Source: Candidatus Daviesbacteria bacterium
GTDB lineage: Bacteria; Patescibacteriota; Microgenomatia; Daviesbacterales; UBA10151
Direction: 5' to 3'
Length of the DNA stretch: 64,000 nucleotides
Assembly: GCA_016183245.1 (NCBI GenBank)
Contig: JACPEY010000011.1
Span: forward strand, 5,568 to 69,567
Shown here in pieces: positions 1,868-63,833 of this stretch. Made by a program: the position numbers and the translations under genes. Every line of letters begins with the position of its first letter. The first letter of the stretch is position 1. The notes below the pieces were generated by a model, which did no database searches, had not been told where the DNA came from, and was given only the letters and a program-made list of their open reading frames with translations.

Positions 1868-2731
1868 TTGCTCTTACGCTCTGCGAATGATATTATACGC
1901 ACTAATATGTCAAATCCAAAAAGTCCTGAGGGAGGCAAAAGAGAACCGTATAATGCAAGTCTTCCAGCTGGACACGGTAAGTGGAGAAAAGAAGTTTCAG
2001 ATGATGAATTGCCTACAGAGGAAGAATTGCAGAAGTTGATATATGGTGATCCACCACTAGCAGCTTTCACTCAAGATAATTCGGATCAAGAAGGTGGTTT
2101 GGTAACATTCCCAGGAAGTGGTTTCCTGCCTTTTGCTCCTGGAACCCGTCGCCCCACTAGTGCTCTTGGTGGACATCGTTGGTCTTGGACTGAACGTGCT
2201 ACAGAAAATCCTTCTGTAGTTCAACCTTCTAAAGAAGATACGGGATTTAGAGAACCAAGAAGAATCAATGAGATAAGGCCAGAAGAGATAGAAACATATT
2301 TGGCTGTACCAGGTTGGCGTATTTGGGTGAGACGTCATTCCGATACCCAAGAATTCTGTTTAAGTGCCCAAGAAGCTGGAGCAAGAGAATTATCCTTAAC
2401 AACTGATGTGTATGGTAAAGGTTATGATCCAATACATTCCAAACTTGAAGCTATTGATAGACAACTACATCCTAATGGTCCAAGATTGCCATTTGGGTAC
2501 AGAAGTTCTATTTGTACCACATACCTACCATGGTATATTCTAGAGCCTTTAACTGCAGATGAAGTGAAGACTATTGACGAATTAGGGGAAGCTTCAGGTC
2601 CAGCAAGTTCTATTGATAGAGCGGCAGAAATCTTGAGACCAGATGAATTAAAAAAGATCTTAGAAGAACCAGATATTCCTTCGTCTAGGAATCGGTTCCG
2701 TCCTATTCAATTTCCGCCAGCAACGATATAA
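1868..2731 (+). CDS. Hypothetical acidic protein with no recognisable domain, in a region of atypical composition.
   Basis: A long intact ORF whose GC is visibly higher than its neighbours. A REP copy lies immediately downstream. Confidence 0.4.
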   Translation: MLLRSANDIIRTNMSNPKSPEGGKREPYNASLPAGHGKWRKEVSDDELPTEEELQKLIYGDPPLAAFTQDNSDQEGGLVTFPGSGFLPFAPGTRRPTSALGGHRWSWTERATENPSVVQPSKEDTGFREPRRINEIRPEEIETYLAVPGWRIWVRRHSDTQEFCLSAQEAGARELSLTTDVYGKGYDPIHSKLEAIDRQLHPNGPRLPFGYRSSICTTYLPWYILEPLTADEVKTIDELGEASGPASSIDRAAEILRPDELKKILEEPDIPSSRNRFRPIQFPPATI

Positions 2732-2743: not shown

Positions 2744-2775
2744 GTCAATACAAATCCACCCCCCCCAGGTGGAAA
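2744..2775. repeat. REP-like palindromic element (CCACCCCCCCCAGGTGGA core), copy 1, intergenic.
   Basis: The sequence tgtcaatacaaatccaccccccccaggtgga shares the CCACC-Cn-AGGTGG core with 5 other copies in the window. Confidence 0.6.
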
Positions 2776-2839
2776 ATATGAATTTGGGGTACAAATATAT
2801 GTTTCGTTTAAGGTAGTAAGAGATTGCAAAGTGAAAATT

Positions 2840-4702
2840 TTAGAATACATTATCGAATCTTTTGTGAGTCATAACTTCTTCTAAAATTACTGCTTTTGTT
2901 TTTGGGTTAATATAGTAAACTGTTCTTAGCTTCTCAGAAAATTGTTTATTTCCAAAAGGTAATCTTCTGGTGTCGCCCCGGAAACTTCGAAGCGACATTT
3001 TTTGACCGTTTTCAAAAATAGCAGATGCACTCTTTATTTTATAAGTCCCGGAACCAAAAGGATCTTCCTGCAGCGATTCAAGTATGAGTTTTATATCGCT
3101 TCTTAACCTCTGATCTCCAGGTATTAAATCGTTTGCAATTTCTTCTGCAAGAAGTCCTATATCTTGAATTTCAACTGTCTGACCGTGATAAATCAGCGCA
3201 TAATTTTCTTTTTCTTCTTGTTCGTGGGGTAAGGATTCAGTTGAAAGATCAGGCATTTCCTGACGGCCAGTAATAAGTGCAATAGACCTGAATGCTCGTC
3301 TCTTAGGAGATTTAGAAACATGCTTTATGGAATCTGATTCCTGGCTGGGAGAAGCAGGCATTGAAGGGGTATATCGTGGAAGCGGTTTGAATTCCACTAG
3401 AGGATTTCCTGTTCTGGCTTCTCTAAGAACAGGAGTTAATAAGTTCTGTATTAATAGATTGGCTGAAGCAGAATTGTCTTTCTGGAGTTGAGGAGGAACC
3501 CCAAGAAGTTGGCCATTTTGAACTAAATCTAAAGTAACAAAAACTTGTTCATCTTCAGTTATACCCACAATAGTGAGAGTTTTACCATATAGCGCTCCTA
3601 CTAAAATTTCATTAAAAAAAATATCTGTCTGGATTGGTATCCTGAGAAATCCATCTTTTGAAGCTTGAGCAGCACCTCTCAGATGTTTGTGATATAAGAC
3701 GGTAGCTTTTATTAGAGTTTCTGTTGTAGTATTTAAAGATGTCTTTTCAGCTTGACTCATTTTTGTCTGATCACGGTATGTTTGGCGTAGTATTTTAGCT
3801 AGTTTGGCTTCAGATCCTGGATTGGTATATTGGTACTTAGCGATTGCTTGGGGTATTTGTGCGGGGGACATGGTTTGCAAAAGAGATGTCATTGTGTGGA
3901 AGAAACCACTATTTCGTATGAAATGTCTAAATATTGAAGGGTTTAGGTTTTCCGTATGGGCATCGATCAGGCGGTAAGTAGATGAGGGTGTAATGTGAAG
4001 CCTAGCCGGGATAAAGCTAAGTAGCGCCCAGGGTAAATGATTTCCAGGTACCATCTTCAGCATAAAAAAGGGGGACTCATCTTTTTGATCATAGTTTAAA
4101 GCCCAGGCAGTGTAATACTCCCAATAATTTTTAAGCCTTTGTATTAATAGTCTTGCCTGATCTGAAATGGGAACTTTAGGGAAGAGCGTTGCTTGAGTAG
4201 CTGCTAAGTTAACCACACTTTGGATATAGAATGTTGGATCCCGGGGTTGACCTTCTTTTGTCTGGACTGGCTTAGTCCATTTATCAATCATTCGATCGAT
4301 TCGGGTAATATCCCTCGTACTCAAAGGAAGAGACATCTGACTTATATCTTTTAGAGAAGTGCCGTTGACCCGAAAGACTAGAGGATTGGCAGCAATATTT
4401 TTTTCTACACAAGCTTTTGTTGCACTCCATGAGCCCCCAGAAGTTACCAGAGGCATGCTATCTAGAAGTCGTTTGGTATCATCTAGGTATCCGGTATAGC
4501 CTGCCCATTGTGAGATTGTATGTAACAAAGTTGGCGGTCTGCTATAAACCCCAAGGTAATAATTGCCATCATCTTCCCTTATAGCTTGGTCCCATTGCCT
4601 AACAGTTTCTTGGATATTTCTCTCGAAAGTATTTAAACAAGTGATATATCTAATGGCTTGATGACTTTTGGCTTGATGACTTTGATTTTTAGTTCTCTCC
4701 AT
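2840..4702 (-). CDS. Hypothetical 620-aa protein. The C-terminal ~60 aa weakly resemble a RelE/ParE-fold toxin.
   Basis: A long ORF of atypical, higher GC. The C-terminus RLPFGNKQFSEKLRTVYYINPKTKAVILEEVMTHKRF resembles the RelE core YRLVYQVIDEKVVVFVISVGKRE. No signal peptide is present. Confidence 0.45.
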   Translation of the reverse strand: MERTKNQSHQAKSHQAIRYITCLNTFERNIQETVRQWDQAIREDDGNYYLGVYSRPPTLLHTISQWAGYTGYLDDTKRLLDSMPLVTSGGSWSATKACVEKNIAANPLVFRVNGTSLKDISQMSLPLSTRDITRIDRMIDKWTKPVQTKEGQPRDPTFYIQSVVNLAATQATLFPKVPISDQARLLIQRLKNYWEYYTAWALNYDQKDESPFFMLKMVPGNHLPWALLSFIPARLHITPSSTYRLIDAHTENLNPSIFRHFIRNSGFFHTMTSLLQTMSPAQIPQAIAKYQYTNPGSEAKLAKILRQTYRDQTKMSQAEKTSLNTTTETLIKATVLYHKHLRGAAQASKDGFLRIPIQTDIFFNEILVGALYGKTLTIVGITEDEQVFVTLDLVQNGQLLGVPPQLQKDNSASANLLIQNLLTPVLREARTGNPLVEFKPLPRYTPSMPASPSQESDSIKHVSKSPKRRAFRSIALITGRQEMPDLSTESLPHEQEEKENYALIYHGQTVEIQDIGLLAEEIANDLIPGDQRLRSDIKLILESLQEDPFGSGTYKIKSASAIFENGQKMSLRSFRGDTRRLPFGNKQFSEKLRTVYYINPKTKAVILEEVMTHKRFDNVF

Positions 4703-14363: not shown

Positions 14364-14375
14364 ATAGCATATATG

Positions 14376-16754: not shown

Positions 16755-16791
16755 TTCTTTGATATGGTACGTTAGAATTGTCCAAAGATAC

Positions 16792-17277: not shown

Positions 17278-17286
17278 AACTGCAAT

Positions 17287-17729: not shown

Positions 17730-18869
17730 GTGATATTTATTAAAAAAGTTGAGAGTTTTGGAAATGCATATTTTGATCCTTTACAGGATGATGTGGAGAT
17801 TTCTGTAAGGACAGGAAAATTACACCCAAATGACCGGGAGAAGATTTCTGAGATGGTCAAATCAGCGAATAAGAAATTGTTTATTCCCCACTACTATGAA
17901 TGGATTTTTGATGGTAGCGTTAAGTTGGTAGGAGTAAAGCTATATACTCCATCTATTATTGCTTCTGCTTCCTTTCCTGTCATTGCGAGGAGCGAAGCGA
18001 CGCGGCAATCCTCAACGAATTGGGAAGATCGCCACGCTATCGCTCGCGATGACAAAAAGGTTTCTGCAGTCAAGGTGTTTTTTGATTTATCAGTAGGGCT
18101 TACAATTGAAAAAGAGATAGACGGGGTATACATAGCTTCTGAGAAAATATTTGACCTTAACAAACCCGGAGAATCATTTGAGAATCTAGTTTTTAGACTG
18201 GTGGAATCTGCCATTACTTTTCCCCGTTCCCTGATACTTTTTAAACTGGCGGATAAATCAGAAGGCCTGCCTGACGGCAAGGCAGGCATGGGTAAAGTGC
18301 GCGGCAGTTTGCGGTTGCTTCATCAGAAAAGTTTATTTGATCCTCTTTTGGAAGTTTTAGATTTTGCCCGTCACAAAAAAGGACTGACAAATATTCATAT
18401 AGTCATACCATATGTGCGGGGTGTAAATGAGCTTCTAAAAATAAAAAGAGAACTGGCTGTCCGGAAGCTCTCCAGAAAAAATTCATTAGGGCATTGGATG
18501 GAAATAGCTTTACCGGAAAATATTATTAATTTGGAAGATTATTTGATTGCAGGGATTGACGGGGTTGTTTTAAACCTTGATGAACTGATTTCCCACTTGA
18601 ACGGATTTGATATCAAAGAAGAAGAGCTGATATTTTATAAAAATGAGGCAGAGGGGTTAATGAAGTTTTTAGAAGACGGCATTAGGCTTTTACATAAATC
18701 AAAAGTTCCTTTTATAGCATCCGGTACTTCAACTTTTAATCAAAAAATGTTGGAGTTTTTAGTGGAGAAAGGGGTAACGGGGGTGGTGGTAGAAAAATAT
18801 GAAGCTCACTCTGCTAAGGATTTATTGCATCAGACAGAAAGAAGGATAGTTTTAAGAAGGGTGGAATAG
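17730..18869 (+). CDS. PEP-utilizing-enzyme-like protein (resembles the C-terminal TIM-barrel of PEP synthase/PPDK) carrying an in-frame palindromic insertion.
   Basis: The blocks NIHIVIPYVRGVNELLKIKREL and IAGIDGVVLNLDELI resemble the PEP-utilizing barrel. The 25-aa segment VIARSEATRQSSTNWEDRHAIARDD is encoded by a 75-bp palindromic element. Confidence 0.35.
   Translation: MIFIKKVESFGNAYFDPLQDDVEISVRTGKLHPNDREKISEMVKSANKKLFIPHYYEWIFDGSVKLVGVKLYTPSIIASASFPVIARSEATRQSSTNWEDRHAIARDDKKVSAVKVFFDLSVGLTIEKEIDGVYIASEKIFDLNKPGESFENLVFRLVESAITFPRSLILFKLADKSEGLPDGKAGMGKVRGSLRLLHQKSLFDPLLEVLDFARHKKGLTNIHIVIPYVRGVNELLKIKRELAVRKLSRKNSLGHWMEIALPENIINLEDYLIAGIDGVVLNLDELISHLNGFDIKEEELIFYKNEAEGLMKFLEDGIRLLHKSKVPFIASGTSTFNQKMLEFLVEKGVTGVVVEKYEAHSAKDLLHQTERRIVLRRVE
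17979..18053. repeat. MITE-like palindromic element (GTCATTGCGAG...CTCGCGATGAC termini), 75 bp, in frame inside a CDS.
   Basis: The termini gtcattgcgag and ctcgcgatgac form a perfect 11-bp terminal inverted repeat. The 75-bp length (a multiple of 3) preserves the reading frame. Confidence 0.6.
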
Positions 18870-19535
18870 TAAAATATATTCGCCTTTGGGATTTTTGAGA
18901 GTTTCCAGCCAACTTGAAACTGGTTTTGTTTCAACGCTTTGGTGGATTTTGGTCAGTTCATGAGCCAAAGTGATATTAATGTTTCCAAAAACTTCTTTAA
19001 TGCTTTCTATAATCCTGATTAATTTATGTGGAGCTGCAAACATTATATATGTCATCTCCCCGGGTGTCCTATCTGATTCACCCCCCAGGTGGATAAACTG
19101 AGAAAGGAATTTTTTTCTATGGCCGGGCTTTTCCGGCGGGTATCCTAAAAACATGAATTTATCAGGTGGCAGGCCGGATAAAGTAAGTGCTGTGATTGCT
19201 GATGACGGCCCTGGTAAGGAATCAACTTTAACTTCCTGTTGCAAGCACTCTCTGATTAGTTTATACCCGGGATCAGAAATTAAAGGGGTGCCGGCATCAG
19301 AAACCAGGGCCAAATTTTGGCCGTTTTTTAGACGATCGACAATAGTTTGTACACTTCGGGCTTCGTTATAGTCATTTAAAATAATTAGAGGTTTATGAAT
19401 GTTATAGTGGTTCAATAGCAGGGACGTTCTTCTGGTGTCTTCACAAATAATTCCATCAACTGACTCAAGAGTCTCTAGCGCTCTTAGGGTAATGTCTTTG
19501 AGATTGCCGATAGGAGTGGCGACAATATATAGCAT
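18852..19535 (-). CDS. rsmI: 16S rRNA (cytidine1402-2'-O)-methyltransferase RsmI (tetrapyrrole-methylase family) carrying an in-frame REP insertion.
   Basis: The family motifs LYIVATPIGNLKDITLRALETL and ICEDTRRT are present. The inserted peptide HLGGESDRTPGE is encoded by REP copy 2. Confidence 0.8.
   Translation of the reverse strand: MLYIVATPIGNLKDITLRALETLESVDGIICEDTRRTSLLLNHYNIHKPLIILNDYNEARSVQTIVDRLKNGQNLALVSDAGTPLISDPGYKLIRECLQQEVKVDSLPGPSSAITALTLSGLPPDKFMFLGYPPEKPGHRKKFLSQFIHLGGESDRTPGEMTYIMFAAPHKLIRIIESIKEVFGNINITLAHELTKIHQSVETKPVSSWLETLKNPKGEYILLFHPS
19057..19094. repeat. REP-like palindromic element, copy 2, inside the rsmI coding sequence.
   Basis: The sequence ccccgggtgtcctatctgattcaccccccaggtgga matches the family consensus. 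Confidence 0.6.
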
Positions 19536-30800: not shown

Positions 30801-33606
30801 TGATGGAAATGTAACAGGTAGTATTGTAACTACAGGTGTGCCTGTTGATACATCTATAGTAGGCGCAAAAACTGTTACTTATACAGTTACTGATATAGCT
30901 GGTAATACAGCCGTTGCAACTAGAACAGTCAATGTAACCGGAGTAGATAACACTGCACCTGTCATTACCTTACTAGGTACTAGCCCTGTGGATGTCACAG
31001 TTGGCACGGCTTATGTTGATGCCGGTGCTACTGCTTTAGATAATGTAGATGGTGATCTAACAGCCAGTATAGTAACTGTTAATCCTGTAAACAGCAATGT
31101 TATTGGTACCTATACAGTTACTTACAACGTCTCAGATGCTGCCGGAAACCCTGCAATAGAAGTTACCAGGACGGTTAACGTAGTGGCTACGACTGATGTT
31201 ACTCCCCCAGTTTTCAGTGCTATTTCTGCAAGTTCTAATAATGCCAATCCGGCTTTGGGCAAAAGCGGTGATGTTGTGACTGTTTCTTTTGTCACCAGCG
31301 AGCCATTATCTGCCAATCCGACAGTGACTATTGGTGGTGGAGCAATGACTTTTGTCTCTCTGGCTGGTTCAACATACACATTTAACCGCACTCTGGATGG
31401 TACAGAGATTGAAAGCGGACAAATTTCCATCACCGGTTCTGATGCAGCCGGTAATCCAGGTGCCAATAATACTGCTACTTTTGCCTTGGACTTTGCACTT
31501 CCAACAGGATCGATTGCTATAAACGGTGGCGCCCTTTATACGACCACGACTGCAGTTATTTTAAATTTTTCCGGAGTTTCAGCTGATGTGACTCAAATTC
31601 AACTTCGAAACGGCACAGTTGGAGCTTTTCAGACAGCAATTCCTTTTGAAAATCCCCACGCTTATGTTTTACCTAATACCCAAGGGGTAAGAGTTGTATC
31701 TGTCCGTTTTATTGACGCAGCCGGAAATCAAAGTACCGGAGTAATTTCAGATGATATTACTTTTGATAATGTTGCCCCGACTGATCCATTGGACGTAGTT
31801 TCTACCAGCCACACTGCTAATGTATCTACGGACAATACTATTGATATGGCCTGGTCTGCGGCTGGTGCTCCTCTAGGAGCAAATGACTTGGTTAGCGGAG
31901 TAGCCGGCTATTCTTATTCTTTCACTCAAGGGGCAACTGATTTGCCTGATACTACAGTGGATTTGCCTTCAACTGCCTTGGGTGTAACCAGTGAAGCTCT
32001 AACAAATGGTACTTGGTTTTTCCACCTTAGAACTCTGGATAATGCCGGAAGTTGGACTTCAACTGTTCATGTTGGGCCATTTAATATTGATGTTGTGGTT
32101 CCGACTACAGGTACAATTTCCGGTTTGGTATTTCAGGATACAAACGCTAACCGCACCAAAGATGCGGGTGAACCGGTTCTGCCCGGATGGACGCTGTATC
32201 TGGATGCAAATAACAACAGGGTGCTGGATGCAGGGGAGGTATTAATTGTAAGCGATGCCGCAGGTAATTATCAGTTTGCAGGACTGCTTCCAGGAACTTA
32301 TAATATTAATGAAGTTAAACAGCCAAACTGGGGTATCAGGTTACCGGGAGACAATGGTTATACACAAATATTGGCTGCAGGGGATAATATCACAGGTAAG
32401 GATTTTGGGAATATAGTTACCCGGTCGGTTAGCGGCCAGGGCCAGGGAGGATTTGCAACAACTACCGGAACAACTCTGACGCCATCGGTTGTGTCAGTTG
32501 GCGACTCTGTCATTGATGTCCCTTCAAACGGGGGTACAAGCAAAGTGACAGTCCCTGCTGATACTATAATTACCGAAAGCACCGGCGCAGTTTTTGATTC
32601 GGCAGCTTTGGCAGCCTCTGACCCGGCTGGTGCGGTGATATCAGGGTTGGGAACAGGTGTTGTAGTTCGGGGAAAACTGCAATGGGGAGTTCCCAACTTA
32701 GGGTTAGTATTCTCAAACCCGATTAATTTGGAAATCTTTGTCGGTACAGATCTTAATGGGCAGGTACTTGATATACTGCGCTCAGTTGAAGGTACAACCA
32801 ACTGGACAAGTGACGGAATTGTGCCTCCGGGCAAATGCACGGTTGCAAACGGCATATGTGCGTTTCAGGCTACAAAAGCTTCATATTATATTGCAGCTCA
32901 AACTGTCAGTCCAACCCCGACACCTACTCCGACTCCTGCATCTGCTACTACCAGCGGTGGTGGAGATAGCGGAAGCGGTGGGGGAAGCGCCAGTGCTCCG
33001 TCTTGCAATGATCCTGTTGCAGGAGGCGCACCGACTTTACTCTCGGCAACTGTATCAGGAGACAATCAAGTTACCTTAACCTGGAGCAAAGCTGCTGATC
33101 CTGTAACACACTATGTAGTAGCTTACGGGTTATCAGCAGGCAACCCGCAATTTGGAAATCCAAATGTTGGCGGGAAAGAGACAACTTCTTATACAGTAAA
33201 AGATCTTTCAGGCGGTACAACTTATTTCTTCAGAGTCAGGGCAGGAAACGGTTGTAATGCCGGTCCTTACTCAAACGAAATATCAGCAACTCCCGGCGGA
33301 AGACAGACAACAGGTCCTGCAGCTGGTTTCCAGGCTGGAGTGTTAGGTGCTTCGACCTCGCTGGGAGAAGGCACGGGTGGTGCTGATCCTAATAACCCAG
33401 ACGCTCCTGATGCAGGCAAGGGTGAAGATGCAGTTACGGAAGGGATTTCTGATATCCTGGGTGCAGATCAGAAAGTAAGCGATAAACCTAACCAGTCATT
33501 TGGAGGTTTCTTGAATACTCAAAGGGCTATTATCGGGGTGTTGCTGCTATTCGTCGCACTCTTTGCTGCTAATGCTTATCGTCTAAGGGCCCGTCGCCGC
33601 AGTTAA
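27814..33606 (+). CDS. Giant 1930-aa surface protein with a lamin-tail domain, two copies of a ~250-aa module, about 6 DUF5011 Ig-like repeats, a Cna-B/SdrD-like fold, a PT linker, FN3, and a C-terminal TM plus basic tail.
   Basis: The lamin-tail motif INEILPNPTAGAEWVELFNNG is present. The DUF5011 repeats have the form PVITLxGxNPxxVxxGxxYxDxGATAxDxxDGxxT. The FN3 domain reads LTWSKAADPVTHYVVAYGL...YFFRVRAGN. The C-terminus is IIGVLLLFVALFAANAYRLRARRRS. Confidence 0.8.
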   Translation: MADNTFEYDLTLPLPPEVKDKDVEVKAAETEAELPSAPKLDEPKEKLAETITIKGLNHFTVFVITLPSPDTAQRVLINEILPNPTAGAEWVELFNNGTQPVNLAAGTGWTIRNSASDAQSLSALGTIPAAGRVVFEAPANWLSNVAPETVTLSNELGTAVDTVTISLVAPGFAIDHYPLAGESVGRKTDGVAEWVIFTAPTKGTANLLPATGGAGKLAEVGPIAPAGGLRAGFPVWYKDSNGLALDLMEAADPRGISDPVDPGNPFSAQIGFNAEGFWWSAEADMSTSGPNGALLVQAIEAAFAGEAAVDGEQSAFARARIRIDVAEPGTYTVTYPYGTKTYTVALADIGPGYEINDTADIGCFAIPGVLNCASATQPNFSTVLNGGIGPFLTWDTFNTNPALSDPLLTDPITGRRYVGSVLGGPHVVKGSPTGNNFFRIAGPNIGGPGVNVVETNLFTVTGRLADATGPVITLHGANPVNVNQNAVYTDAGATALDDQDGNITANIQVTGLPVDTSTLGSKTVTYTVTDSAGHTTTATRTVNVVAVGGIDITAPVITVTGANPATVTAGTPYNDAGATALDNVDGDITANIVTTGLPINTSAPGSFAVTYTVSDAAGNPATAARTVNVVADIIPPVITVLGSNPVNVLVGAAYTDAGATAVDNVDGNVTVNITTTGLPINTAAAGSFAVTYNVTDAAGNTATATRTVNVAATLPAGLVEVGPVAPAGGLRAGFPVWYKDSNGLALELMEAADPNGISAAVDPGNPFSAQIGFGAEGFWWSADASISTSGPNGAILVQAVEAAFAGEAAVDGEQSAFARVRIRIDVAEPGSYTVTFPYGTKTYVVDAVGAGFEINDTSDIGCFAQIGVASCNQATPPNFSTVLAGQIGPFLTWDTFNTNPALSDPILTNIATGRRYVGIPVPHAVKGSPTGNNFFRIAGPNIGGPGVNVVETNLFDVTGRIADVTPPVITLNGANPDTVVQNAVYVDPGSIALDDFDGNVTGSIVTTGVPVDTSIVGAKTVTYTVTDIAGNTAVATRTVNVTGVDNTAPVITLLGTSPVDVTVGTAYVDAGATALDNVDGDLTASIVTVNPVNSNVIGTYTVTYNVSDAAGNPAIEVTRTVNVVATTDVTPPVFSAISASSNNANPALGKSGDVVTVSFVTSEPLSANPTVTIGGGAMTFVSLAGSTYTFNRTLDGTEIESGQISITGSDAAGNPGANNTATFALDFALPTGSIAINGGALYTTTTAVILNFSGVSADVTQIQLRNGTVGAFQTAIPFENPHAYVLPNTQGVRVVSVRFIDAAGNQSTGVISDDITFDNVAPTDPLDVVSTSHTANVSTDNTIDMAWSAAGAPLGANDLVSGVAGYSYSFTQGATDLPDTTVDLPSTALGVTSEALTNGTWFFHLRTLDNAGSWTSTVHVGPFNIDVVVPTTGTISGLVFQDTNANRTKDAGEPVLPGWTLYLDANNNRVLDAGEVLIVSDAAGNYQFAGLLPGTYNINEVKQPNWGIRLPGDNGYTQILAAGDNITGKDFGNIVTRSVSGQGQGGFATTTGTTLTPSVVSVGDSVIDVPSNGGTSKVTVPADTIITESTGAVFDSAALAASDPAGAVISGLGTGVVVRGKLQWGVPNLGLVFSNPINLEIFVGTDLNGQVLDILRSVEGTTNWTSDGIVPPGKCTVANGICAFQATKASYYIAAQTVSPTPTPTPTPASATTSGGGDSGSGGGSASAPSCNDPVAGGAPTLLSATVSGDNQVTLTWSKAADPVTHYVVAYGLSAGNPQFGNPNVGGKETTSYTVKDLSGGTTYFFRVRAGNGCNAGPYSNEISATPGGRQTTGPAAGFQAGVLGASTSLGEGTGGADPNNPDAPDAGKGEDAVTEGISDILGADQKVSDKPNQSFGGFLNTQRAIIGVLLLFVALFAANAYRLRARRRS

Positions 33607-34514: not shown

Positions 34515-36548
34515 ATGGCAAAATTTCAAATTGTTTCAGATTTCAAACCTACTGGGGACCAACCACAAGCCATTGAGAAGCTGGTTAACGGGATAAATAA
34601 AGGCAGACAGCACCAGGTTTTGCTTGGAGTAACAGGTAGTGGTAAGACTTTTACTATGGCTAATGTTATCCAGAAAGTGCAAAGGCCGACCCTGGTTATT
34701 TCCCATAATAAAACTTTAGCAGGACAACTGGCTCAGGAGTTTAGGTCTCTGTTTCCAAATAACGCTGTTGAGTATTTTGTTTCTTATTATGATTATTACC
34801 AGCCAGAAGCGTATATTCCCCAATCAGATACTTATATTGAAAAGGAAACCCAGATTAATGAGGAAATAGAAAAGTTAAGGCTGTCTGCAACTGCATCACT
34901 GCTTAGCAGAAAAGATGTGATAGTAGTAGCCTCAGTTTCTGCAATCTATAACTTAGGTTCTCCAATAGAGTATGGCCAGGCAATACTGGAAATCGGCCCG
35001 GGCATGAAAGCCGGTATGCAGCAGGTGATGAAGATTTTGCAGAAGATGTTTTATAAGCGCAATGATATTGATTTTAAAAGGGGGACATACCGGGTCAGGG
35101 GTGATACGGTTGATATTTTTCCTTCATATAAAGATCAAGGTTACAGGTTACAATTTTTAGGGGACAGACTGGAGAGTGTAAGCGAGTTGGAGGTTGTGAC
35201 AGGTAATGTTTTAAAAATGCAGGGAACGCAGACTATTTATCCTGCCAAGCATTACATTACTTCGGAACAAAGGATTGTGCCGGGAATTAAACAAATAGAA
35301 ATCGATTTAGAATCTAGAGTCAAGAGTCTAGAGTCAAGTGGAAAATTGATAGAAGTGCAGAGATTAGACCAAAGGACAAATTATGATTTGGAGATGATCC
35401 GGCAATTCGGGTACTGCAACGGAATTGAAAATTACTCCCGCTATTTTGACGGCCGGAACCCCGGGGACCCTCCATATACTTTGCTTCATTACTTTCCTCA
35501 AGACTTTTTGCTCGTTATTGATGAATCCCATATGACTATCCCTCAAATTCGGGGGATGTATAACGGGGACCGGTCAAGGAAGGAAACTTTAATAGATTTT
35601 GGGTTCAGGCTGCCTTCGGCTTTGGATAACAGGCCCTTAAAGTTTGATGAGTTTATGAGGATGATTAACCAGGCAGTTTATGTTTCAGCCACTCCGGATG
35701 AGTATGAATTATCCCTAGCGAATTCATCCCACCTGGGGGGTGGTCTAGATAGGACACCTAGGGGTACTGATGGGTTGTATAGCCATGATGGGATAGCGGA
35801 ACAATTGGTCAGGCCAACTGGGATTTTGGATCCGGAGGTTTCTGTAAGACCGATTAAAGGTCAAATTGAAGATTTATTAAGAGAAATAGAGACTAGAGTC
35901 AAGAGTCAGGAAAGGGTATTGATAACAACTTTAACCAAAAGAACAGCTGAAGATTTGGCAGATTATTTAAAGGAAAAAGGCATTAAGGTGCACTATCTGC
36001 ACTCTGATGTTAAAACTTTAGAAAGAGGGGATATTTTACAGGCTTTGAGGTTGGGGGAATATGATGTGATTGTGGGAATTAATTTACTTCGGGAAGGTCT
36101 GGATTTGCCGGAAGTTTCACTGGTGGCAATTTTAGATGCTGATAAGGAAGGGTTTTTAAGGTCCAGGACTTCTTTGATACAGACCATGGGCAGGGCTGCC
36201 AGGCATGTTAGAGGGCAGGTAATTATGTATGCCGACATTGTCACCAAATCCATGAAAGCAGCCATAGATGAGGTAAAAAGAAGGAGGAAATATCAGGCAG
36301 ATTACAATAAAAAACATAATATTACGCCGAGAAGCATAGAAAAAGCTTTACGGGAAAGGTTGATAGAGAAAGTAGAGGAGCTGGAAGAATCTTTGGGTAA
36401 AACAGATTTAACTGTTGATGATATTCCGGTAGAGGATCGGAAAAAAATGATTAAAAACCTGGAAGCCCAGATGAAACAGGCAGCAGAACTTTTAGACTTT
36501 GAAGAAGCTGCCAAAATTCGGGATCAGATTAAGGAGTTAAGTATTTAG
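34515..36548 (+). CDS. uvrB: Excinuclease ABC subunit B (UvrB) carrying an in-frame REP insertion.
   Basis: Walker A (GVTGSGKT), helicase motifs, the VRPTGILDP block and the C-terminal UVR motif (EEAAKIRDQI) are present. The region between YEL and QLVRPTG is about 20 aa longer than the E. coli UvrB sequence recalled from memory, and it contains HLGGGLDRTPRGT. Confidence 0.9.
   Translation: MAKFQIVSDFKPTGDQPQAIEKLVNGINKGRQHQVLLGVTGSGKTFTMANVIQKVQRPTLVISHNKTLAGQLAQEFRSLFPNNAVEYFVSYYDYYQPEAYIPQSDTYIEKETQINEEIEKLRLSATASLLSRKDVIVVASVSAIYNLGSPIEYGQAILEIGPGMKAGMQQVMKILQKMFYKRNDIDFKRGTYRVRGDTVDIFPSYKDQGYRLQFLGDRLESVSELEVVTGNVLKMQGTQTIYPAKHYITSEQRIVPGIKQIEIDLESRVKSLESSGKLIEVQRLDQRTNYDLEMIRQFGYCNGIENYSRYFDGRNPGDPPYTLLHYFPQDFLLVIDESHMTIPQIRGMYNGDRSRKETLIDFGFRLPSALDNRPLKFDEFMRMINQAVYVSATPDEYELSLANSSHLGGGLDRTPRGTDGLYSHDGIAEQLVRPTGILDPEVSVRPIKGQIEDLLREIETRVKSQERVLITTLTKRTAEDLADYLKEKGIKVHYLHSDVKTLERGDILQALRLGEYDVIVGINLLREGLDLPEVSLVAILDADKEGFLRSRTSLIQTMGRAARHVRGQVIMYADIVTKSMKAAIDEVKRRRKYQADYNKKHNITPRSIEKALRERLIEKVEELEESLGKTDLTVDDIPVEDRKKMIKNLEAQMKQAAELLDFEEAAKIRDQIKELSI
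35727..35764. repeat. REP-like palindromic element, copy 3 (reverse orientation), inside the uvrB coding sequence.
   Basis: The sequence tcccacctggggggtggtctagataggacacctagggg matches the family consensus in reverse. Confidence 0.65.
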
Positions 36549-37803: not shown

Positions 37804-37840
37804 TTCCACCTGGGGGGTGGGCTAGGTAGGACACCTAGGG
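37804..37840. repeat. REP-like palindromic element, copy 4, at the 3' flank of the RAYT.
   Basis: The sequence tccacctggggggtgggctaggtaggacacctaggg matches the family consensus. Confidence 0.65.
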
Positions 37841-37862
37841 AAATTAGATAATTTCAAGTTTA

Positions 37863-38612
37863 CTATTCCTGTACGAGATGTTGAATTTTATGAAGTTGTC
37901 TTTGATAATCGGCATGGTCTTCGATAAATTTTTGATAAACCTTAGGATTTATGAAAAGGCTCATTATTATATCTAAATTACAAATCTCAGCCTTATTACT
38001 TAGATATTCAGAGAGGGATGACCAGGGATATGCAAATAAGGTATTTAGATCCTTTACGACGTAGGAGGTATAGGGATTGAGATGAATGTATCTTGAAATG
38101 TGTATTAACTGTTCATCAGTTATGATTAGTTTAGCTTTAAATTGATCTAAGAAGAGTGATCCATCGCGTTCTCTTTTAGTATTAGAATATCTAGTGTAGC
38201 TATTTTGAAAATTCCCCAAAAATTTAGAAATTCCCTTATCTTTAATTTGTTTTATTAAAAAATGGAAATGATTTGGCATTAAACAAAAAGCCAGAATTTC
38301 TACAAGCTTATCATCTTCTTTCCTCAAATTATCCATAATTTTTGTCCGGTCATCATTTGAAAGTGTTAGAAATTTTGATAATTTAGCGGGAAGATTGCTG
38401 AATCTATAGAAGTCGATTACAAGCCTTGCTCTTTTGTATTCCAGTTTATCTAAGAAAGTTGGTTGATGATTTATCCCACGGTTAAAAACATGATAAATTT
38501 GGTCATTAACTAAAGGTGTTAATCTACCCGGCATATTTCTTAGAATAACCCTGATATCCCTAGGTGTCAATAGAAATCCACCCCCCAGGTGGACTATACT
38601 ATTCAGATTCAA
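37863..38612 (-). CDS. REP-associated tyrosine transposase (RAYT; IS200/IS605-like Y1 HUH transposase).
   Basis: The N-terminal block YHVFNRGINHQPTF, the HUH motif NHFHFLI and the catalytic-Tyr block RYIHLNPY are present. The first ~17 codons (HLGGGFLLTPRD) are REP-encoded, so the real start may be the internal Met at ~38534. Confidence 0.75.
   Translation of the reverse strand: MNLNSIVHLGGGFLLTPRDIRVILRNMPGRLTPLVNDQIYHVFNRGINHQPTFLDKLEYKRARLVIDFYRFSNLPAKLSKFLTLSNDDRTKIMDNLRKEDDKLVEILAFCLMPNHFHFLIKQIKDKGISKFLGNFQNSYTRYSNTKRERDGSLFLDQFKAKLIITDEQLIHISRYIHLNPYTSYVVKDLNTLFAYPWSSLSEYLSNKAEICNLDIIMSLFINPKVYQKFIEDHADYQRQLHKIQHLVQE
38558..38594. repeat. REP-like palindromic element, copy 5, at the 5' end of the RAYT.
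   Basis: The sequence ccctaggtgtcaatagaaatccaccccccaggtgga matches the family consensus. Confidence 0.65.
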
Positions 38613-39294
38613 TACTGCCGGAGCCTTCCTGTTCTTTGTTGACTTGTGGGGGTTCTTCTCTTAGAAAATATTGAATTGTTGGATCATCTTCTTCCCATTT
38701 TTTTATTTTTTCGCGGGCTTCAGTGTTTAAATCGCGTCCTGCAACGGGGATTATTTCCTTTCCCAATCTGTTTAGGATTCCTAATACTTTAGGATCAGCA
38801 ATAGTTTCTCCTGTAACCGGATCCAAGTCTTCATAACTAACCGCAATTTCATCAAATGGGAGTTCTAATGCTCCTTGTAAAGGTATACTGGAAAAATGGC
38901 CTGTCTCCTTCCTTAATTTTTGTGCTTCCTCAATTGACAAAGTTCCTCTTGCTACCCCTAAAGGAATATAAGGATTTGAGGGTTTTTCTTCCTCATTAAG
39001 AGTCCCTCCCTGTAAAGTAATTTCCTGATAGGTTTTAAAGTCAAGTGCCATATACTTAGTATAATTTATTTGATCACGCTCTGCTACTTCACTCTTTAAT
39101 AATCTTGCAAAATGGGGTAAAATAATAGTTTGATTTTTCGAAGAAAAATAGTCCCACGGTTTATTTTTCGGGGAAAATATGGCTATAGACAAAATTACTA
39201 TTAAAGGTGCTAGAGAACATAATTTAAAAAATATTGACCTGGAAATTCCTAAGAACAAGTTAGTGGTTTTAACCGGGATCTCCGGTTCAGGCAA
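38599..39294 (-). CDS. Hypothetical protein with an uncertain start (the annotated 5' end overlaps the uvrA start).
   Basis: The ORF overlaps the first ~115 nt of uvrA on the opposite strand. An internal Met near 39054 is the more plausible start. Confidence 0.3.
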   Translation of the reverse strand: MPEPEIPVKTTNLFLGISRSIFFKLCSLAPLIVILSIAIFSPKNKPWDYFSSKNQTIILPHFARLLKSEVAERDQINYTKYMALDFKTYQEITLQGGTLNEEEKPSNPYIPLGVARGTLSIEEAQKLRKETGHFSSIPLQGALELPFDEIAVSYEDLDPVTGETIADPKVLGILNRLGKEIIPVAGRDLNTEAREKIKKWEEDDPTIQYFLREEPPQVNKEQEGSGSIESE

Positions 39295-42265
39295 GTCTTC
39301 CCTGGCTTTTGATACCCTTTATGCCGAAGGTCAAAGAAGGTATGTAGAATCTTTATCTTCCTATGCCCGGCAGTTTTTGGGAGTCATGGATAAGCCTGAT
39401 GTAGATTTGATTGAAGGTCTTTCTCCTGCGATTTCTATTGACCAAAAAGGTGTCTCACACAATCCTCGCTCTACAGTTGGAACCACCACGGAAATTTACG
39501 ATTATTTAAGGCTTTTATTTGCCCGGGTTGGCCATCCTCATTGTCCTGTATGCGGTAGGGAAGTTGCCAAGATGAGCGTAGAGCAAATTACTCAACTTGT
39601 CATTCTGGGGAGAAGCGGAGCGACGACTCCAGAATCTATTACTAAGGATTCTGGACAAGCCAGAATGACAAAAAGGGGCAGGAGAATAATGATTTTGGCG
39701 CCGGTGGTTAAAGACAGGAAAGGCGAGTACAGCCAGTTATTTGAAGATTTCAGGAAAAAAGGGTTTTCTAAAGTCAGGGTTGGCGGATATATAATAGACC
39801 TGGCTGATGATTTGGTATTAATTAAAACAAATAAGCATACGATTGATCTGGTTGTAGATAGGCTTGTTTTAGATAAGAGTGTCATTCTGGGAGTCCCGAC
39901 GAAGTCGCGGACGACACCAGAATCAACGAATCAGTTAGATTCTGGACGCGCCCCTTCAGGGCCTGCCAGAATGACAAAAGAAAGTAAAGATAGTACTCAA
40001 GCAGACAATATTTACTCAAGATTGTCACAAAGCATTGAGACAGCGCTTAAATTTGGTGAGGGATCAGTGATAGTTTCTGATGTGCTGGATGCTTCTTTGG
40101 AATTCCCTCAAAATCCTAAAAAAATGGAGGACCATCTTTACTCGGAAAGATTTGCCTGTCCTGTAGACAATATCTCGCTGAGCGAGATTGAACCCAGACT
40201 TTTGTCTTTTAACTCTCCTCACGGAGCCTGTCCAAAATGTTCAGGATTAGGGAATCTTTTAGAAATTGATGCAGCTACAATTTTAAATCCAATTCTCTCT
40301 ATAGCAGAGGGCGGAATTCTGCCTATGTCAAAGCTTGCCACAAGTGATACCTGGTATACAAGGCTTATTGAAGCAGTGGGTAAAAAATATGGCTTTGATA
40401 CAAATACAAGGCTGGGGAATCTGACAGCTGAAGCCAAAAAGATATTGCTTTATGGTGGCGCAGATGAAGAATTTAAAGTAGAAGGCAGGAACAGACAGGG
40501 GAAGTGGACTCATTTTTATTCTGAATTTGCCGGGCTGGTGCCTTATCTTAAGGAAAGATATACAACAACTGAGTCGGATTTTGTTAAGGCCGAAATTGAA
40601 AAATATATGGTCAAAGAAACCTGTCCGAAGTGTAAAGGAGCAAGACTTAAAGATGAAGCACTTTCAATAACTATAGATGGATTAAACATTGCAGAAGTTA
40701 CCAGCCAGTCAATTGTTCAGGCTTTGGACTGGATCAAAAGAATTTCCGCTCGTAATGATGGGAAGGTATTAAGTGAGCGTGAGGCACAGATAGCAAGTCC
40801 TATTTTAAAAGAAATTAATGCCAGGTTGCAGTTTTTGATTGATGTGGGATTGGATTATCTGACTTTAGACAGGGCTGCCATGACTCTGGCGGGAGGAGAA
40901 TCACAAAGGATCAGGCTTGCTTCCCAGATCGGTTCAGGGCTTTCCGGAGTATTGTATGTTTTAGACGAGCCTTCAATAGGGTTGCATCAAAGGGATAATA
41001 CCAGGTTGATTGAAACTTTAAAAAAACTCAGGAATCTGGGTAATACTGTGATTGTTAATGAACATGATGCTGAAACAATGGAGGCATCGGATCTTCTGAT
41101 CGAAATTGGTCCGGGAGCCGGTGAACACGGCGGGCAGATTGTAGCTATAGGAACGCCTGATGAAATTAAGAAAAATCCCGCATCGACAACCGGCCAGTAT
41201 TTATCCGGAAATAAAAAAGTCGGAGCAAATATTCTTCAAGCACAGCGAGAATCTTCCTTAAAAACTATTAATAAATATGTGCTTAAAATTTTGGGTGCTT
41301 CTGAACATAACTTAAAAAATATTGACGTTTCTTTCCCCCTGGGAAAATTTATAGTAATTACAGGTGTTTCCGGTTCAGGTAAATCAACTTTAATTCATGA
41401 TATTTTATTTAAAGCTCTAGCCCAAAAAGTTTACCGCTCCAGGGAAAAACCCGGGCTGCATAGGGGCCTGGAAGGAACAGAGAATATAGATAAGGTAGTA
41501 TTGGTAGACCAGTCGCCTATTGGCCGCACTCCCCGTTCAAATCCGGCTACATATACCGGGGCATTTACCCACATCCGGGAGCTGTTTGCCCAAAGCCCGG
41601 AAGCAAAAATCAGAGGCTATAACCCGGGCAGATTTTCCTTTAATGTCAAAGGAGGAAGGTGTGAAGTTTGTGAGGGAGAGGGTACTTTAAAGATTGAGAT
41701 GCAGTTTTTACCGGATGTGTATGTAAGTTGTGAGTCATGTAACGGAGCAAGGTATAACAGGGAAGCTTTGGAAATCTATTTTAAGGAGAAAAATATTGCC
41801 CAGGTTCTGGATATGACGGTTGAAACTGCTTTAAAGTTTTTTGAAAATATTCCTCAGGTTAAAAACAAGCTGCAGGTTTTATTTGATGTGGGGTTGGGGT
41901 ACATTAAGCTGGGACAGCCTGCACCTACTCTTTCAGGAGGAGAAGCCCAAAGGATTAAACTTTCTTCAGAATTATCAAAACGTTCTACAGGACAAACAGT
42001 ATATATTCTTGATGAACCTACAACAGGCTTGCATTTTGCCGATATCGAAAGACTTCTAATGATCCTGAGGAAGTTAGTTAATGTGGGGAATACAGTAATA
42101 ATAATAGAACATAACCTGGATGTGATAAAAAATACTGACTGGGTAATAGATTTAGGCCCTGAAGGCGGAGACAAGGGGGGGAAAATTGTCGCCCAAGGTA
42201 CTCCTGTCCAAATTGCCAAAATTAAAGATTCTTACACCGGCATGTATCTTGCAAAAATACTTTAA
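39179..42265 (+). CDS. uvrA: Excinuclease ABC subunit A (UvrA) carrying two in-frame palindromic-element insertions.
   Basis: Two ABC modules are present, each with Walker A GxSGSGKS (GISGSGKSSL, GVSGSGKSTL), signature LSGGE and Zn-finger CxxC pairs. At 1028 aa it is longer than the ~940 aa typical of UvrA. The extra segments are ...TTPESITKDSGQARMTKRG... and ...TTPESTNQLDSGRAPSGPARMTKES... Confidence 0.9.
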   Translation: MAIDKITIKGAREHNLKNIDLEIPKNKLVVLTGISGSGKSSLAFDTLYAEGQRRYVESLSSYARQFLGVMDKPDVDLIEGLSPAISIDQKGVSHNPRSTVGTTTEIYDYLRLLFARVGHPHCPVCGREVAKMSVEQITQLVILGRSGATTPESITKDSGQARMTKRGRRIMILAPVVKDRKGEYSQLFEDFRKKGFSKVRVGGYIIDLADDLVLIKTNKHTIDLVVDRLVLDKSVILGVPTKSRTTPESTNQLDSGRAPSGPARMTKESKDSTQADNIYSRLSQSIETALKFGEGSVIVSDVLDASLEFPQNPKKMEDHLYSERFACPVDNISLSEIEPRLLSFNSPHGACPKCSGLGNLLEIDAATILNPILSIAEGGILPMSKLATSDTWYTRLIEAVGKKYGFDTNTRLGNLTAEAKKILLYGGADEEFKVEGRNRQGKWTHFYSEFAGLVPYLKERYTTTESDFVKAEIEKYMVKETCPKCKGARLKDEALSITIDGLNIAEVTSQSIVQALDWIKRISARNDGKVLSEREAQIASPILKEINARLQFLIDVGLDYLTLDRAAMTLAGGESQRIRLASQIGSGLSGVLYVLDEPSIGLHQRDNTRLIETLKKLRNLGNTVIVNEHDAETMEASDLLIEIGPGAGEHGGQIVAIGTPDEIKKNPASTTGQYLSGNKKVGANILQAQRESSLKTINKYVLKILGASEHNLKNIDVSFPLGKFIVITGVSGSGKSTLIHDILFKALAQKVYRSREKPGLHRGLEGTENIDKVVLVDQSPIGRTPRSNPATYTGAFTHIRELFAQSPEAKIRGYNPGRFSFNVKGGRCEVCEGEGTLKIEMQFLPDVYVSCESCNGARYNREALEIYFKEKNIAQVLDMTVETALKFFENIPQVKNKLQVLFDVGLGYIKLGQPAPTLSGGEAQRIKLSSELSKRSTGQTVYILDEPTTGLHFADIERLLMILRKLVNVGNTVIIIEHNLDVIKNTDWVIDLGPEGGDKGGKIVAQGTPVQIAKIKDSYTGMYLAKIL
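39599..39669. repeat. MITE-like palindromic element (GTCATTCTGG...CCAGAATGAC termini), copy A, inside uvrA.
   Basis: A 10-bp perfect terminal inverted repeat and an internal palindrome ccagaatc...gattctgg are present. Confidence 0.6.
39881..39975. repeat. MITE-like palindromic element (GTCATTCTGG...CCAGAATGAC termini), copy B, inside uvrA.
   Basis: It has the same 10-bp terminal inverted repeat as copy A and is about 95 bp long. Confidence 0.6.
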
Positions 42266-62792: not shown

Positions 62793-63803
62793 ATGAAAAT
62801 TGGTTATATCGGTCTTGGCAGGATGGGGAAGAATATGGTCCTCAACCTTTTGGAAAAAGGGATTGAGGTGGTGGCATATAACCGGTCCCCTGAGCCCAGG
62901 GAAGAGCTGCAAAAAGAAGCCAGCCAGTTAAAAAGCGGATCAGAGAATTTAAAGGTAGCAGATAATCTGGGAGAGTTGGTGACAGAGTTAAGGAATAATA
63001 AAGAAGATCCTGGACAAGCCAGGATGACAGAAGGGGAGGACGGAATTGTGATCTGGTTAATGATCTCTGCCGGTGCAGCCATTGACGCTGTTTTGGAGGA
63101 ATTAAGCGATAAATTAACTTCCGGAGATCTGGTAATTGATGGCGGAAATTCCCTTTATACAGATACTTTAAGGCGGGGTAAGATGCTTTCCCAAAAAGGA
63201 ATCCATTACATGGATGCCGGCACTTCCGGCGGAATTGAGGGAGCAAGGAATGGGGCTTGTATCATGGCAGGCGGTTCTGAGGAGGATTTTAAGAAAGTGG
63301 AGCCTGTATTAAAAGCTGCTGCACAACCGGGCGCTTATGCTTATCTGGGTCCTCTGGGTGCAGGTCACTTTGCCAAAACAATTCATAACGGAATTGAGTA
63401 TGGCATGATGCAGGCAATCGGGGAAGGTGCGGCAATTTTGAAAAATTCCGGGTTTCCTTATGATTTGCGGGAAGTTTTCCGTATTTACAATACCGGCTCA
63501 ATTATTGAATCAAGGCTGGTGGGATGGACTTTGGCAGAACTTAAAAATGACCCTGAACTTGCCAATATTACCTCTGTTATCGGTTCAGGAGGTGGTGCAG
63601 GTAAAACAAAAGGAGAAGCTCACTGGACAGTGGAACTGGCTAAAAAATTAGGGGTAGGTGTGCCGGTTATAGAAGCATCGGTAGCAGTCCGGGACAACTC
63701 TGATCAGGATAAGGAAGATTCTCCCAATGGTTTCCGTAATAAAATAGTTGCTGCCATGCGCTGGCAATTCGGCAGACATCCGGTTAAGAAACAAATTCCC
63801 TAG
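62793..63803 (+). CDS. gnd: 6-phosphogluconate dehydrogenase (decarboxylating), short YqeC/Gnd-like form. It carries a probable partial palindromic-element insertion, and its stop codon is supplied by a REP.
   Basis: NAD-binding IGYIGLGRMGKNM and the catalytic blocks GTSGGIEGARNG and KTIHNGIEYGMMQAIGEG are present. The extra segment NNKEDPGQARMTEGEDG at 63001-63030 resembles the right end of the uvrA elements. The TAG stop lies inside REP copy 6. Confidence 0.8.
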   Translation: MKIGYIGLGRMGKNMVLNLLEKGIEVVAYNRSPEPREELQKEASQLKSGSENLKVADNLGELVTELRNNKEDPGQARMTEGEDGIVIWLMISAGAAIDAVLEELSDKLTSGDLVIDGGNSLYTDTLRRGKMLSQKGIHYMDAGTSGGIEGARNGACIMAGGSEEDFKKVEPVLKAAAQPGAYAYLGPLGAGHFAKTIHNGIEYGMMQAIGEGAAILKNSGFPYDLREVFRIYNTGSIIESRLVGWTLAELKNDPELANITSVIGSGGGAGKTKGEAHWTVELAKKLGVGVPVIEASVAVRDNSDQDKEDSPNGFRNKIVAAMRWQFGRHPVKKQIP

Positions 63804-63833
63804 GTGTTCTATCTAGACCACCCCCCAGGTGGA
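63798..63833. repeat. REP-like palindromic element, copy 6, overlapping the gnd stop codon.
   Basis: The sequence ccctaggtgttctatctagaccaccccccaggtgga matches the family consensus. Confidence 0.65.

Follow-up and report, generated by a model that had tools for sequence, protein, structure and literature searches.

The locus described here raises the question of what kind of genetic element is formed by a small transposase gene and the short repeats that stand on both sides of it. The DNA analysed (hereafter the window) is a 64-kb stretch, with a G+C content of 39%, of a contig from Candidatus Daviesbacteria, a lineage of the Microgenomates in the Candidate Phyla Radiation (CPR); proteins of the window match database entries under that name at full identity. 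The gene, on the reverse strand, encodes a Y1 HUH tyrosine transposase. An earlier note had read the locus as a classic REP-associated tyrosine transposase (RAYT) with its population of repetitive extragenic palindromes (REPs) and REP doublets (REPINs). Bacterial mobile DNA that is "domesticated" and passed on vertically is best exemplified by RAYT/REP systems, work on which has, to our knowledge, been confined almost entirely to Proteobacteria and Cyanobacteria. The remark that they are poorly described in lineages of this kind appears right: no paper on RAYT/REP in the CPR was found in a literature search. The locus probably holds a RAYT-class system, namely a single-copy, vertically inherited Y1 HUH endonuclease/transposase flanked by its own cognate repeat and nearest to TnpAY1 subclass 2.1. 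It adds a lineage to the known RAYT/REP kind of system and does not establish a new kind.

The Y1 enzyme gene and its product

The three motifs by which the gene had been recognised (YHVFNRGINHQ, HFHFLI and YIHLNPY) are all present in the open reading frame (ORF) 37863..38612 on the reverse strand, and the assignment to the Y1 transposases held when the protein was compared with Pfam PF01797 (Y1_Tnp; 35 bits against a cut-off of 23). Homologues are numerous (4254 at E ≤ 1e-5). The HUH motif is H89-F-H91 and the catalytic tyrosine is Y149 in YIHLNP, all invariant in 35 aligned homologues; the tyrosine motif is of the form Y...NP, as opposed to the Y...Q of IS200.

The start of the gene was placed at the ATG at 38534, because all 35 aligned homologues begin with MPGR (M1, P2 and R4 invariant) and are, where close, 221-227 aa long, because a database protein annotated 'transposase [Ca. 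Daviesbacteria]' is 100% identical over 223 aa, and because the gene calls on four identical contigs also give 223 aa. The gene thus occupies 37863..38534 (reverse strand, stop codon included) and its product begins MPGRLTPL. The longer, TTG-started ORF adds 26 codons, including the REP-encoded VHLGGGFLLTPRD; these were rejected as an ORF-calling artefact, which arises because the repeat in that orientation happens to have one open frame. The proposal that the first ~17 codons are REP-encoded, with the end of the element overlapping the start of the gene, was therefore abandoned: 22 nt separate the end of the repeat from the ATG downstream of it.

An AlphaFold2 (AF2) model of the 223-aa protein, built from 35 homologues, was confident (pLDDT 89, pTM 0.86) and places the catalytic tyrosine on helix 140-156. 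Its top match among PDB structures (Foldseek) was 4er8_A, the E. coli TnpA_REP in complex with a REP hairpin (E=1.7e-7, TM-score 0.74 on the target), which outranked the IS608, ISDra2 and IS200 transposase structures.

The motifs NHFH, FQ (NFQNSY), YIHLNP and WSS (YPWSSL) agree with the subclass 2.1 row in Table 1 of Quentin et al. 2018 (PMC6006769), an assignment made by motif comparison only. Subclass 2.1 corresponds to RAYT Group 1 (Bertels et al. 2017, PMC5581495) and to most of the 'TIRYT/TIRtron' group of Di Nocera et al. 2013 (PMC3733652), whose TIRYTs are described as flanked by terminal inverted repeats (TIRs). Plasmids of Sporomusa and Pseudoalteromonas carry the nearest retrievable homologues outside the CPR. 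These are 28-30% identical, are typical members of that group and have inverted repeats of the GGGGTCAG type on their flanks; the GGGGWSAS TIR motif is present around both of them and absent from the CPR repeat. The Sporomusa homologue matches Bac_DnaA_C. A Pfam search with residues 147-223 of the window protein gave no hit even at E ≤ 5, and a distal C-terminal helix-turn-helix (HTH; Bac_DnaA_C/HTH_23/HTH_28-like) was not detected. On the whole of these results, the length of 223 aa included, the protein is treated as a RAYT-class enzyme nearest to TnpAY1 subclass 2.1/Bertels Group 1, and not as one of the classical REPIN-associated groups.

Copies and anatomy of the repeat

Six copies of a repeat had been listed in the window, two of them in inverted orientation on either side of the ORF 37863..38612, and both the number and the arrangement were borne out. 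A 15-nt core, CCACCCCCCAGGTGG, was found six times with at most two mismatches (2758, 19078, 35729, 37806, 38578 and 63818); shuffled sequences are expected to hold 0.02 such copies, and none of 100 shuffles attained six. The unit is ~36 nt long, as judged from an alignment of the six copies and from a repeat finder. It had been described as palindromic over its whole length, which needs correction: the self-complementary part is the 15-17 nt of TCCACC-N5-GGTGGA only, the rest being spacer and a non-palindromic arm. The unit consists of this G+C-rich 6-bp hairpin, a 9-nt spacer and the conserved arm ACACCTAGGG, which duplicates the 5' stem and the loop of the hairpin (CACCTGGGG).

Two spacer variants were distinguished: 'A' (..GTGTCCTATCTAGACC.., also given as ..CTAGATAGGACACC..) and 'B' (..GTGTCAATAGAAATCC.., also ..CTATTGACACC..). 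The copy upstream of the gene is always of variant 'B', and the downstream copy and most dispersed copies are of variant 'A'. The upstream copy of the window (38557..38593, forward strand) ends 22 nt before the ATG and reads TCCACC-TGGGG-GGTGGA-TTTCTATTG-ACACCTAGGG on the gene strand. The downstream copy (37805..37840, reverse strand) is inverted with respect to it and begins 22 nt past the stop codon. Three further 'A' copies lie at 35729..35763 (reverse strand; in frame within uvrB), at 19057..19093 (forward strand; in frame within rsmI) and at 63798..63833 (forward strand), the last at the 3' end of a 6-phosphogluconate-dehydrogenase-like ORF (62793..63803), whose TAG stop codon is provided by the CCCTAGG of the repeat. 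The sixth copy (2744..2780, forward strand) is a degenerate 'B' between the convergent ORFs 1868..2731 (forward) and 2840..4702 (reverse), with a decayed arm and two extra C in the loop. Three of the six copies are within 3 kb of the Y1 gene. All six are singlets, and no doublet was found in the window. The bases 5' of the conserved hairpin are unconserved on one strand and are CTAGA or AAAT on the other. An Rfam scan of the window returned three tRNAs and nothing else. Two tRNA-Lys genes of the window (15631-15847 and 52996-53132; anticodons TTT and CTT) are 79% identical, and the likeness extends beyond the gene into some 60 nt of the flank. Internal repeats of another sort mark a 1930-aa ORF (27814-33606), with 243-nt units at 29208-29948 and a duplication of ~1.5 kb (28467-29384 against 29970-30875); its product is probably a repetitive surface protein.

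Covariation of the hairpin

The hairpin was assessed in 26 distinct repeat copies from 17 loci. TCCACC-N5-GGTGGA was 92% paired across these copies, compensatory changes were present in three of its six pairs (TC/GA, TA/TA, TT/AA, CC/GG and, in locus L036, AACC/GGTT) and the covariation score was attained by none of 500 shuffles. The arm takes part in these changes. At L036 the stem is altered from CACC to AACC, matched both in the 3' stem and in the arm (AAACC), and at L035 the loop TCGGA is matched by the arm CACCTCGGG. This three-way covariation of arm, 5' stem and loop suggests either a double reading of one motif or a 3' stem able to pair with either partner; it might reflect a guide/cleavage-site relation or an alternative pairing. 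A second hairpin (CTAGGT..ACCTAG), which folding of the 37805 copy had suggested, did not stand: over the 26 copies only 53% of its cells were paired, with no compensatory support.

Gene and repeat in other lineages

The gene-plus-repeat unit is kept in at least 10 independent loci of three CPR classes. The hairpin and arm precede the homologous gene by ~22 nt in L016/17, L018, L019, L021, L027, L030, L035, L036 and L037, and the Y1 proteins of the loci that share them are 58-83% identical to the window protein. An upstream copy together with a nearby downstream copy was found in Daviesbacteria (L016/L017, L018, L027, L029, L030 and L010), in a Roizmanbacteria metagenome-assembled genome (MAG; L019), in Levybacteria-type loci (L021/L023 and L035) and in two other lineages (L036 and L037); in L016/17, L018, L027, L029 and L030 the downstream copy is arranged as in the window.

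Paralogous Y1 genes, 35-43% identical to that of the window, are each bordered by their own, different hairpin: ACACC-TTAAA-GGTGT + AAAGCTA in L019 (gene 14353-15003), GACGCACCTT-GACG-AAGGTGCGTC in L040 and L041 (genes 10087-10761 and 10482-11168, respectively) and ACACC-TCGAA-GGTGT + AAAGCTAAA in L042 (gene 16662-17309). One repeat type per enzyme lineage is the pattern described for RAYT/REP pairs.

The surroundings of the genes differ. Paralogous Y1_Tnp genes of other Daviesbacteria sit in the same uvrB-uvrA-uvrC neighbourhood, and one Roizmanbacteria contig carries two Y1 types 4 kb apart. In the Levybacteria type (L021/L023 and L035, 9361-13442) the Y1 gene lies between ppa-gyrA and gyrB, conserved in two lineages; E. 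coli REPs are gyrase targets. Two MAG contigs titled 'uncultured Gammaproteobacteria' (CAYQAW010000014.1, L008/L017, and CAZDEH010000010.1, L002; 36% G+C) bear a Daviesbacteria-type Y1 gene, UvrB and repeats, and protein P0015 of L017 is the same protein as in a Daviesbacteria MAG; the label of these MAGs is probably wrong.

Inheritance, selection and copy number

The window contains one copy of the Y1 gene and no other fragment of it. Its position beside uvrB/uvrA is shared by the Daviesbacteria loci L016/17, L018, L027, L029 and L030. Between homologues, the pairwise ratio of non-synonymous to synonymous substitution (dN/dS) is 0.05-0.09 (~0.07) at dS >1.5. The gene is vertically inherited under strong purifying selection, in the pattern of a domesticated element and not of an active insertion sequence (IS). 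Since the flanking non-coding repeats are >90% identical although synonymous sites are saturated (dS >1.5), the repeats are under selection too.

Loss of the gene and other arrangements of the repeat were also seen. In the uvrA-uvrB spacer of L011 (the JACPEX Daviesbacteria MAG) the Y1 gene is absent and a solo 'B'-type repeat is found at 3498-3533, with intact hairpin and decayed arm; the copy within uvrB is kept. This lineage has lost the Y1 gene, keeping the solo repeat as a remnant. L027 carries at 3497-3637 (equal to L032 5738-5878) a 23-codon C-terminal Y1 fragment that adjoins a repeat doublet. The intact gene is 1.2 kb away, and the fragment may be the remnant of a duplication or rearrangement. 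At L024 (6614-6807) three tandem repeat units with differing loops stand in the same orientation, ~80 nt apart.

For copy numbers beyond the window, the exact pattern GGTGT-N11-CACCCCCCAGGTGG, which matches five of the six window copies, was searched in 185,579 species-representative genomes (the source genome not among them) and in JGI metagenomes. The results are given below with the points that they bear on. L002 holds five repeat copies in 8 kb, four of them with the loop variant CCACCCTTCGGGTGG. Contigs of the JBGOVI MAG hold 55-nt doublets of the form CCCTAGGTGT-N10-hairpin-N10-ACACCTAGGG, that is, two units with one common central hairpin, which resemble the "double-foot" REPs of subclass 2.4. 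With its six copies the window is comparatively rich. These numbers fit Group 1, in which flanking 16-mers amount to ~12 per replicon (PMC5581495), and not the hundreds of Pseudomonas.

Weighing of the explanations

In the RAYT-class reading, which we regard as probable, the enzyme would act in the manner of E. coli TnpA_REP and of the IS200/IS605 TnpA: it would recognise the hairpin in single-stranded DNA and would cut and rejoin the strand close by through Y149 with a metal bound at the HUH motif. By the same analogy, we infer that the enzyme mobilises the repeats: the short repeat would occasionally be copied or moved to new sites and the gene itself would not. Such movement would explain the small family, with six singlets in the window and 55-nt doublets in a related MAG. 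Copies that arrive in tolerant protein linkers would survive in frame through the sole open frame of each orientation, as in uvrB and rsmI. Signs of mobility are the lack of the rsmI copy in two orthologues, the lack of the uvrB copy in two and its presence in one, and the solo repeat that L011 retains where the gene is missing.

Several results weigh against this reading. The protein scored 50.7 bits on the NCBIfam model REP_Tyr_transpos (NF047646), below its cut-off of 80. PDB sequence searches with the protein and with the 35-sequence profile found no TnpA_REP and retrieved ISDra2 TnpA only, weakly (E ~0.01). No REP-like sequence was found for subclass 2.1 by Quentin et al. (PMC6006769). 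The exact pattern was matched at 11 loci in the species genomes and at 11 in JGI, with at most four matches per MAG, and several of the matches are the gene-flanking copies themselves. The arrangement is not uniform, the downstream copy of the Levybacteria type being direct, not inverted. No insertion polymorphism was found, as the four other gene-bearing contigs are short and 100% identical to the window, and no direct sign of activity or recent movement was seen. Finally, this repeat lacks the 5' GT[AG]G guide tetranucleotide that adjoins the base of the hairpin in canonical REPs. The "classic" architecture of the earlier note is upheld as to the RAYT-class Y1 enzyme, its 4ER8-like fold and its cognate dispersed repeat, and is not supported as to the RAYT family cut-off, the subclass (the motifs being those of 2.1), the GT[AG]G tag and the doublets, of which the window has none. 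Since the scans gave at most four exact copies per species-representative genome, a REP copy number far above that of the RAYT is only modestly borne out (6:1 in the window).

The alternative that survives best, though we think it unlikely, is that the repeats are regulatory or structural motifs of the host (promoter, operator, terminator or protein-binding sites), kept by selection, and that the Y1 enzyme is otherwise employed, for example in processing single-stranded DNA in connection with the adjacent genes of nucleotide excision repair (NER). The enzyme might bind the hairpins without dispersing them, and the dispersed copies would have other origins. This alternative would account for the low copy number and for gene-adjacent repeats far better conserved than synonymous sites, as a binding or regulatory site would be; Y1 genes of three paralogous types lie in the uvrB-uvrA-uvrC neighbourhood, and non-transposition roles have been proposed for several subclasses (PMC6006769). 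It also draws on a promoter-like site, TTGACA-17-TATTCT (38542..38570, reverse strand), the best of the region with 10 of 12 matches, whose -35 hexamer is within the upstream repeat and whose -10-like hexamer ends ~7 nt before the ATG; by eye, TTGACA with a hexamer 17 nt on recurs in five homologous loci. On this weak evidence the upstream repeat may form part of the promoter of the gene and would be a plausible autoregulatory site. Promoter-like sites are, however, no commoner in this region than in shuffles (seven found, 6.2 expected), and one paralogue has its TTGAC only 12 nt from the ATG, which weakens the promoter reading. The lineage-specific in-frame copies in rsmI, uvrB, uvrA and uvrC resemble insertions and are difficult to account for as regulatory sites, doublets and tandem clusters exist, and the fold is nearest to that of a REP-cleaving enzyme.

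It is considerably less probable that the gene belongs to an autonomous IS of the IS200/IS605 type, with the entire REP-gene-REP unit as the transposing element and the short copies as its deletion remnants. The Y1_Tnp domain and the hairpin-bearing ends around the gene would suit such an element, as would the C-terminal gene fragment beside a repeat doublet at L027, the variable location of the gene between CPR classes and the duplication rate of Bertels Group 1, at 6.3% the highest of the RAYT groups. Yet the gene is single in 64 kb with no other fragment, and its synteny is kept across lineages with saturated synonymous sites; its motif has the form Y...NP, where IS200 transposases have Y...Q; and among the neighbouring genes, which have no Pfam family, none was called as tnpB-like. 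The ends are inverted copies of one element, as against the different left and right ends on the same strand in IS200/IS605, and each short copy is a whole unit with its hairpin intact, unlike the nested series that deletions would leave. A chance resemblance, an assembly artefact or a spurious ORF frame, for which nothing speaks beyond the mechanical nature of the ORF list, is refuted by the shuffles (0 of 100), the 4254 homologues, the identical sequence in four independent assemblies and the confident fold.

A wider version of the RAYT-class reading, which we offer tentatively and hold to be unlikely, is that in Daviesbacteria the Y1 enzyme and its hairpin repeats are coupled to the NER locus and not just adjacent to it. 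It draws on the three paralogous Y1 types of that neighbourhood, each with a hairpin of its own, and on the many in-frame entries of repeats of this superfamily into uvrA, uvrB and uvrC, which persist as coding sequence; the upstream repeat may serve the enzyme as a portable promoter/operator. If true, the coupling would parallel, within the CPR, what is known of the Rickettsia palindromic elements (RPEs; Ogata et al. 2000, as cited in PMC3733652), with a vertically inherited HUH enzyme residing at the locus as the driving agent and possibly with a functional link to repair.

Comparison with known systems

Among described systems, subclass 2.1/TIRYT is the closest: the signature NH[YF]H / FQ / Y[IV]HLNP / SS in the proximal tail, the length of ~220-240 aa, the low copy number, the inverted repeats around the gene (some of them self-complementary) and the small dispersed families are all alike. 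The window system differs from it in that the protein is without a detectable distal HTH/Bac_DnaA_C, in that the repeat is a covarying hairpin plus arm instead of a GGGGWSAS TIR (with direct copies in Levybacteria), and in its CPR/Microgenomates lineage, which is outside those surveys.

With the E. coli TnpA_REP/REPtron and the Pseudomonas REPIN-RAYT systems (subclasses 2.2 and 2.5; Groups 2 and 3) it shares a single-copy, vertically inherited Y1 gene, a hairpin repeat that both flanks the gene and is dispersed, a separate repeat for each paralogue and, in JBGOVI, doublets. In contrast to these, the protein is only ~14% identical and below the NCBIfam RAYT cut-off, the repeat is without the GT[AG]G tag, copies number tens at most and not hundreds, and singlets predominate in the window; the JBGOVI doublets have one central hairpin, unlike REPINs, in which two REPs are separated by a spacer. 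The likeness to IS200/IS605 TnpA (IS608, ISDra2) is in the HUH/Y1 fold, the hairpin-bearing flanks and the single-strand chemistry that would be expected by analogy; the differences are the Y...NP motif, the longer protein with its C-terminal tail, the single-copy and syntenic gene, the absence of tnpB and the ends, which are one element used twice.

The significance of the locus is that a large conserved clade of the least understood branch, which had been reported to be REP-less, has a cognate, covarying hairpin repeat, found in reduced CPR genomes and conserved over several candidate classes. Gene and repeat form a compact, sequence-defined candidate enzyme-substrate pair for biochemistry.

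In-frame copies in uvrB, rsmI and other repair genes

The copies within uvrB and rsmI had not been remarked upon in the earlier note. In uvrB (34515..36548, forward strand) the 35729 copy encodes HLGGGLDRTPRG. A 66-nt segment (35721-35786), situated between YELSLA and DGIAEQLVRPTG, replaces one codon of the orthologues (22 codons for one), a net gain of 21 aa; L017 and L018 have a UvrB without it, and L011 has it in diverged form. The 63-nt insertion was also considered as a decayed doublet, which was rejected, the supposed left arm TCCCTAGCG being native S-L-A codons that are also in the orthologues. In rsmI (18852..19535, reverse strand) the 19057 copy encodes (I)HLGGESDRTPGE, a net gain of 9-10 aa that is absent from the RsmI of L018 and L032. 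Both genes are intact despite their copies and well above the NCBIfam cut-offs: the window UvrB still scores 1028 bits on NF003673, and RsmI 218 bits on TIGR00096 (cut-off 168). The frame common to the intragenic copies (HLGGG.DRTPR) was set aside as independent evidence, because each orientation of the repeat has one stop-free frame only.

UvrB was surveyed in the 120 closest orthologues (P0121-P0240; baseline length 656-657 aa). At the same linker (window 35721-35786), 45 of the 120 have an insertion of 5-54 aa, and two or more repeat families have contributed to these. Loosely counted by motif, ~33 of the 45 inserts encode HLGGG-, HLPGV-, HLRGV- or STPGV-like peptides, the translations expected of CACC-N5-GGTG hairpins, and six come from a second repeat family. 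CACC-N5-GGTG hairpins were confirmed in the DNA at this linker in the window, L011, L040 and L041, and L042 has a related 13-bp inverted repeat there. Either the linker readily tolerates insertions or it is a hot spot for them.

Short palindromic repeats in frame in housekeeping genes that are left intact, NER genes among them, and TAG stops donated by repeats are features shared with intragenic REPs and RPEs. For REPs, an enrichment of intragenic copies in excision-repair genes (uvrA, excinuclease ABC) and the donation of TAG stops have been reported (Di Nocera et al. 2013, PMC3733652). Here the repeat sequence and the host are others, several repeat families have entered the UvrB linker, in 45 of 120 orthologues, and a Y1 gene is resident between uvrB and uvrA. 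The intragenic REP phenomenon is known, and its extent in the CPR appears not to have been described before. That CPR UvrA, UvrB, UvrC and RsmI are repeatedly lengthened by in-frame palindromic repeats matters for annotation and for alignment-based CPR phylogeny, and bears on the preference of intragenic REPs for excision-repair genes that was observed long ago.

Other in-frame palindromes were noted in the same genes. At L040 (13769-13830) a hairpin doublet of the same superfamily is in frame in uvrA, and at L042 (19485-19530) a full hairpin-plus-arm unit is in frame in uvrC, adding 17 aa with respect to the window UvrC. The window also holds a second, unrelated palindromic family (~75-97 nt, with ends TGTCATTCTGG...CCAGAATGACA) at 39597-39670, 39880-39976 and 63006-63036, all in frame: two copies in uvrA (39179..42265, forward strand) and one in the ORF 62793..63803, with peptides such as ..VILGRSGATTPES..DSGQARMT.... 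The window UvrA has 1028 aa, against 974-987 aa in orthologues without these segments. Inserts of the PASPAGG, PPAGRAG, CLPAGRP and NPPAGG kind occur elsewhere in the UvrB proteins P0137, P0141, P0154, P0168, P0195, P0198, P0231 and P0238, in L018 uvrB and in L042 uvrC and, judged from the protein, look like the translation of a third small G+C-rich palindrome.

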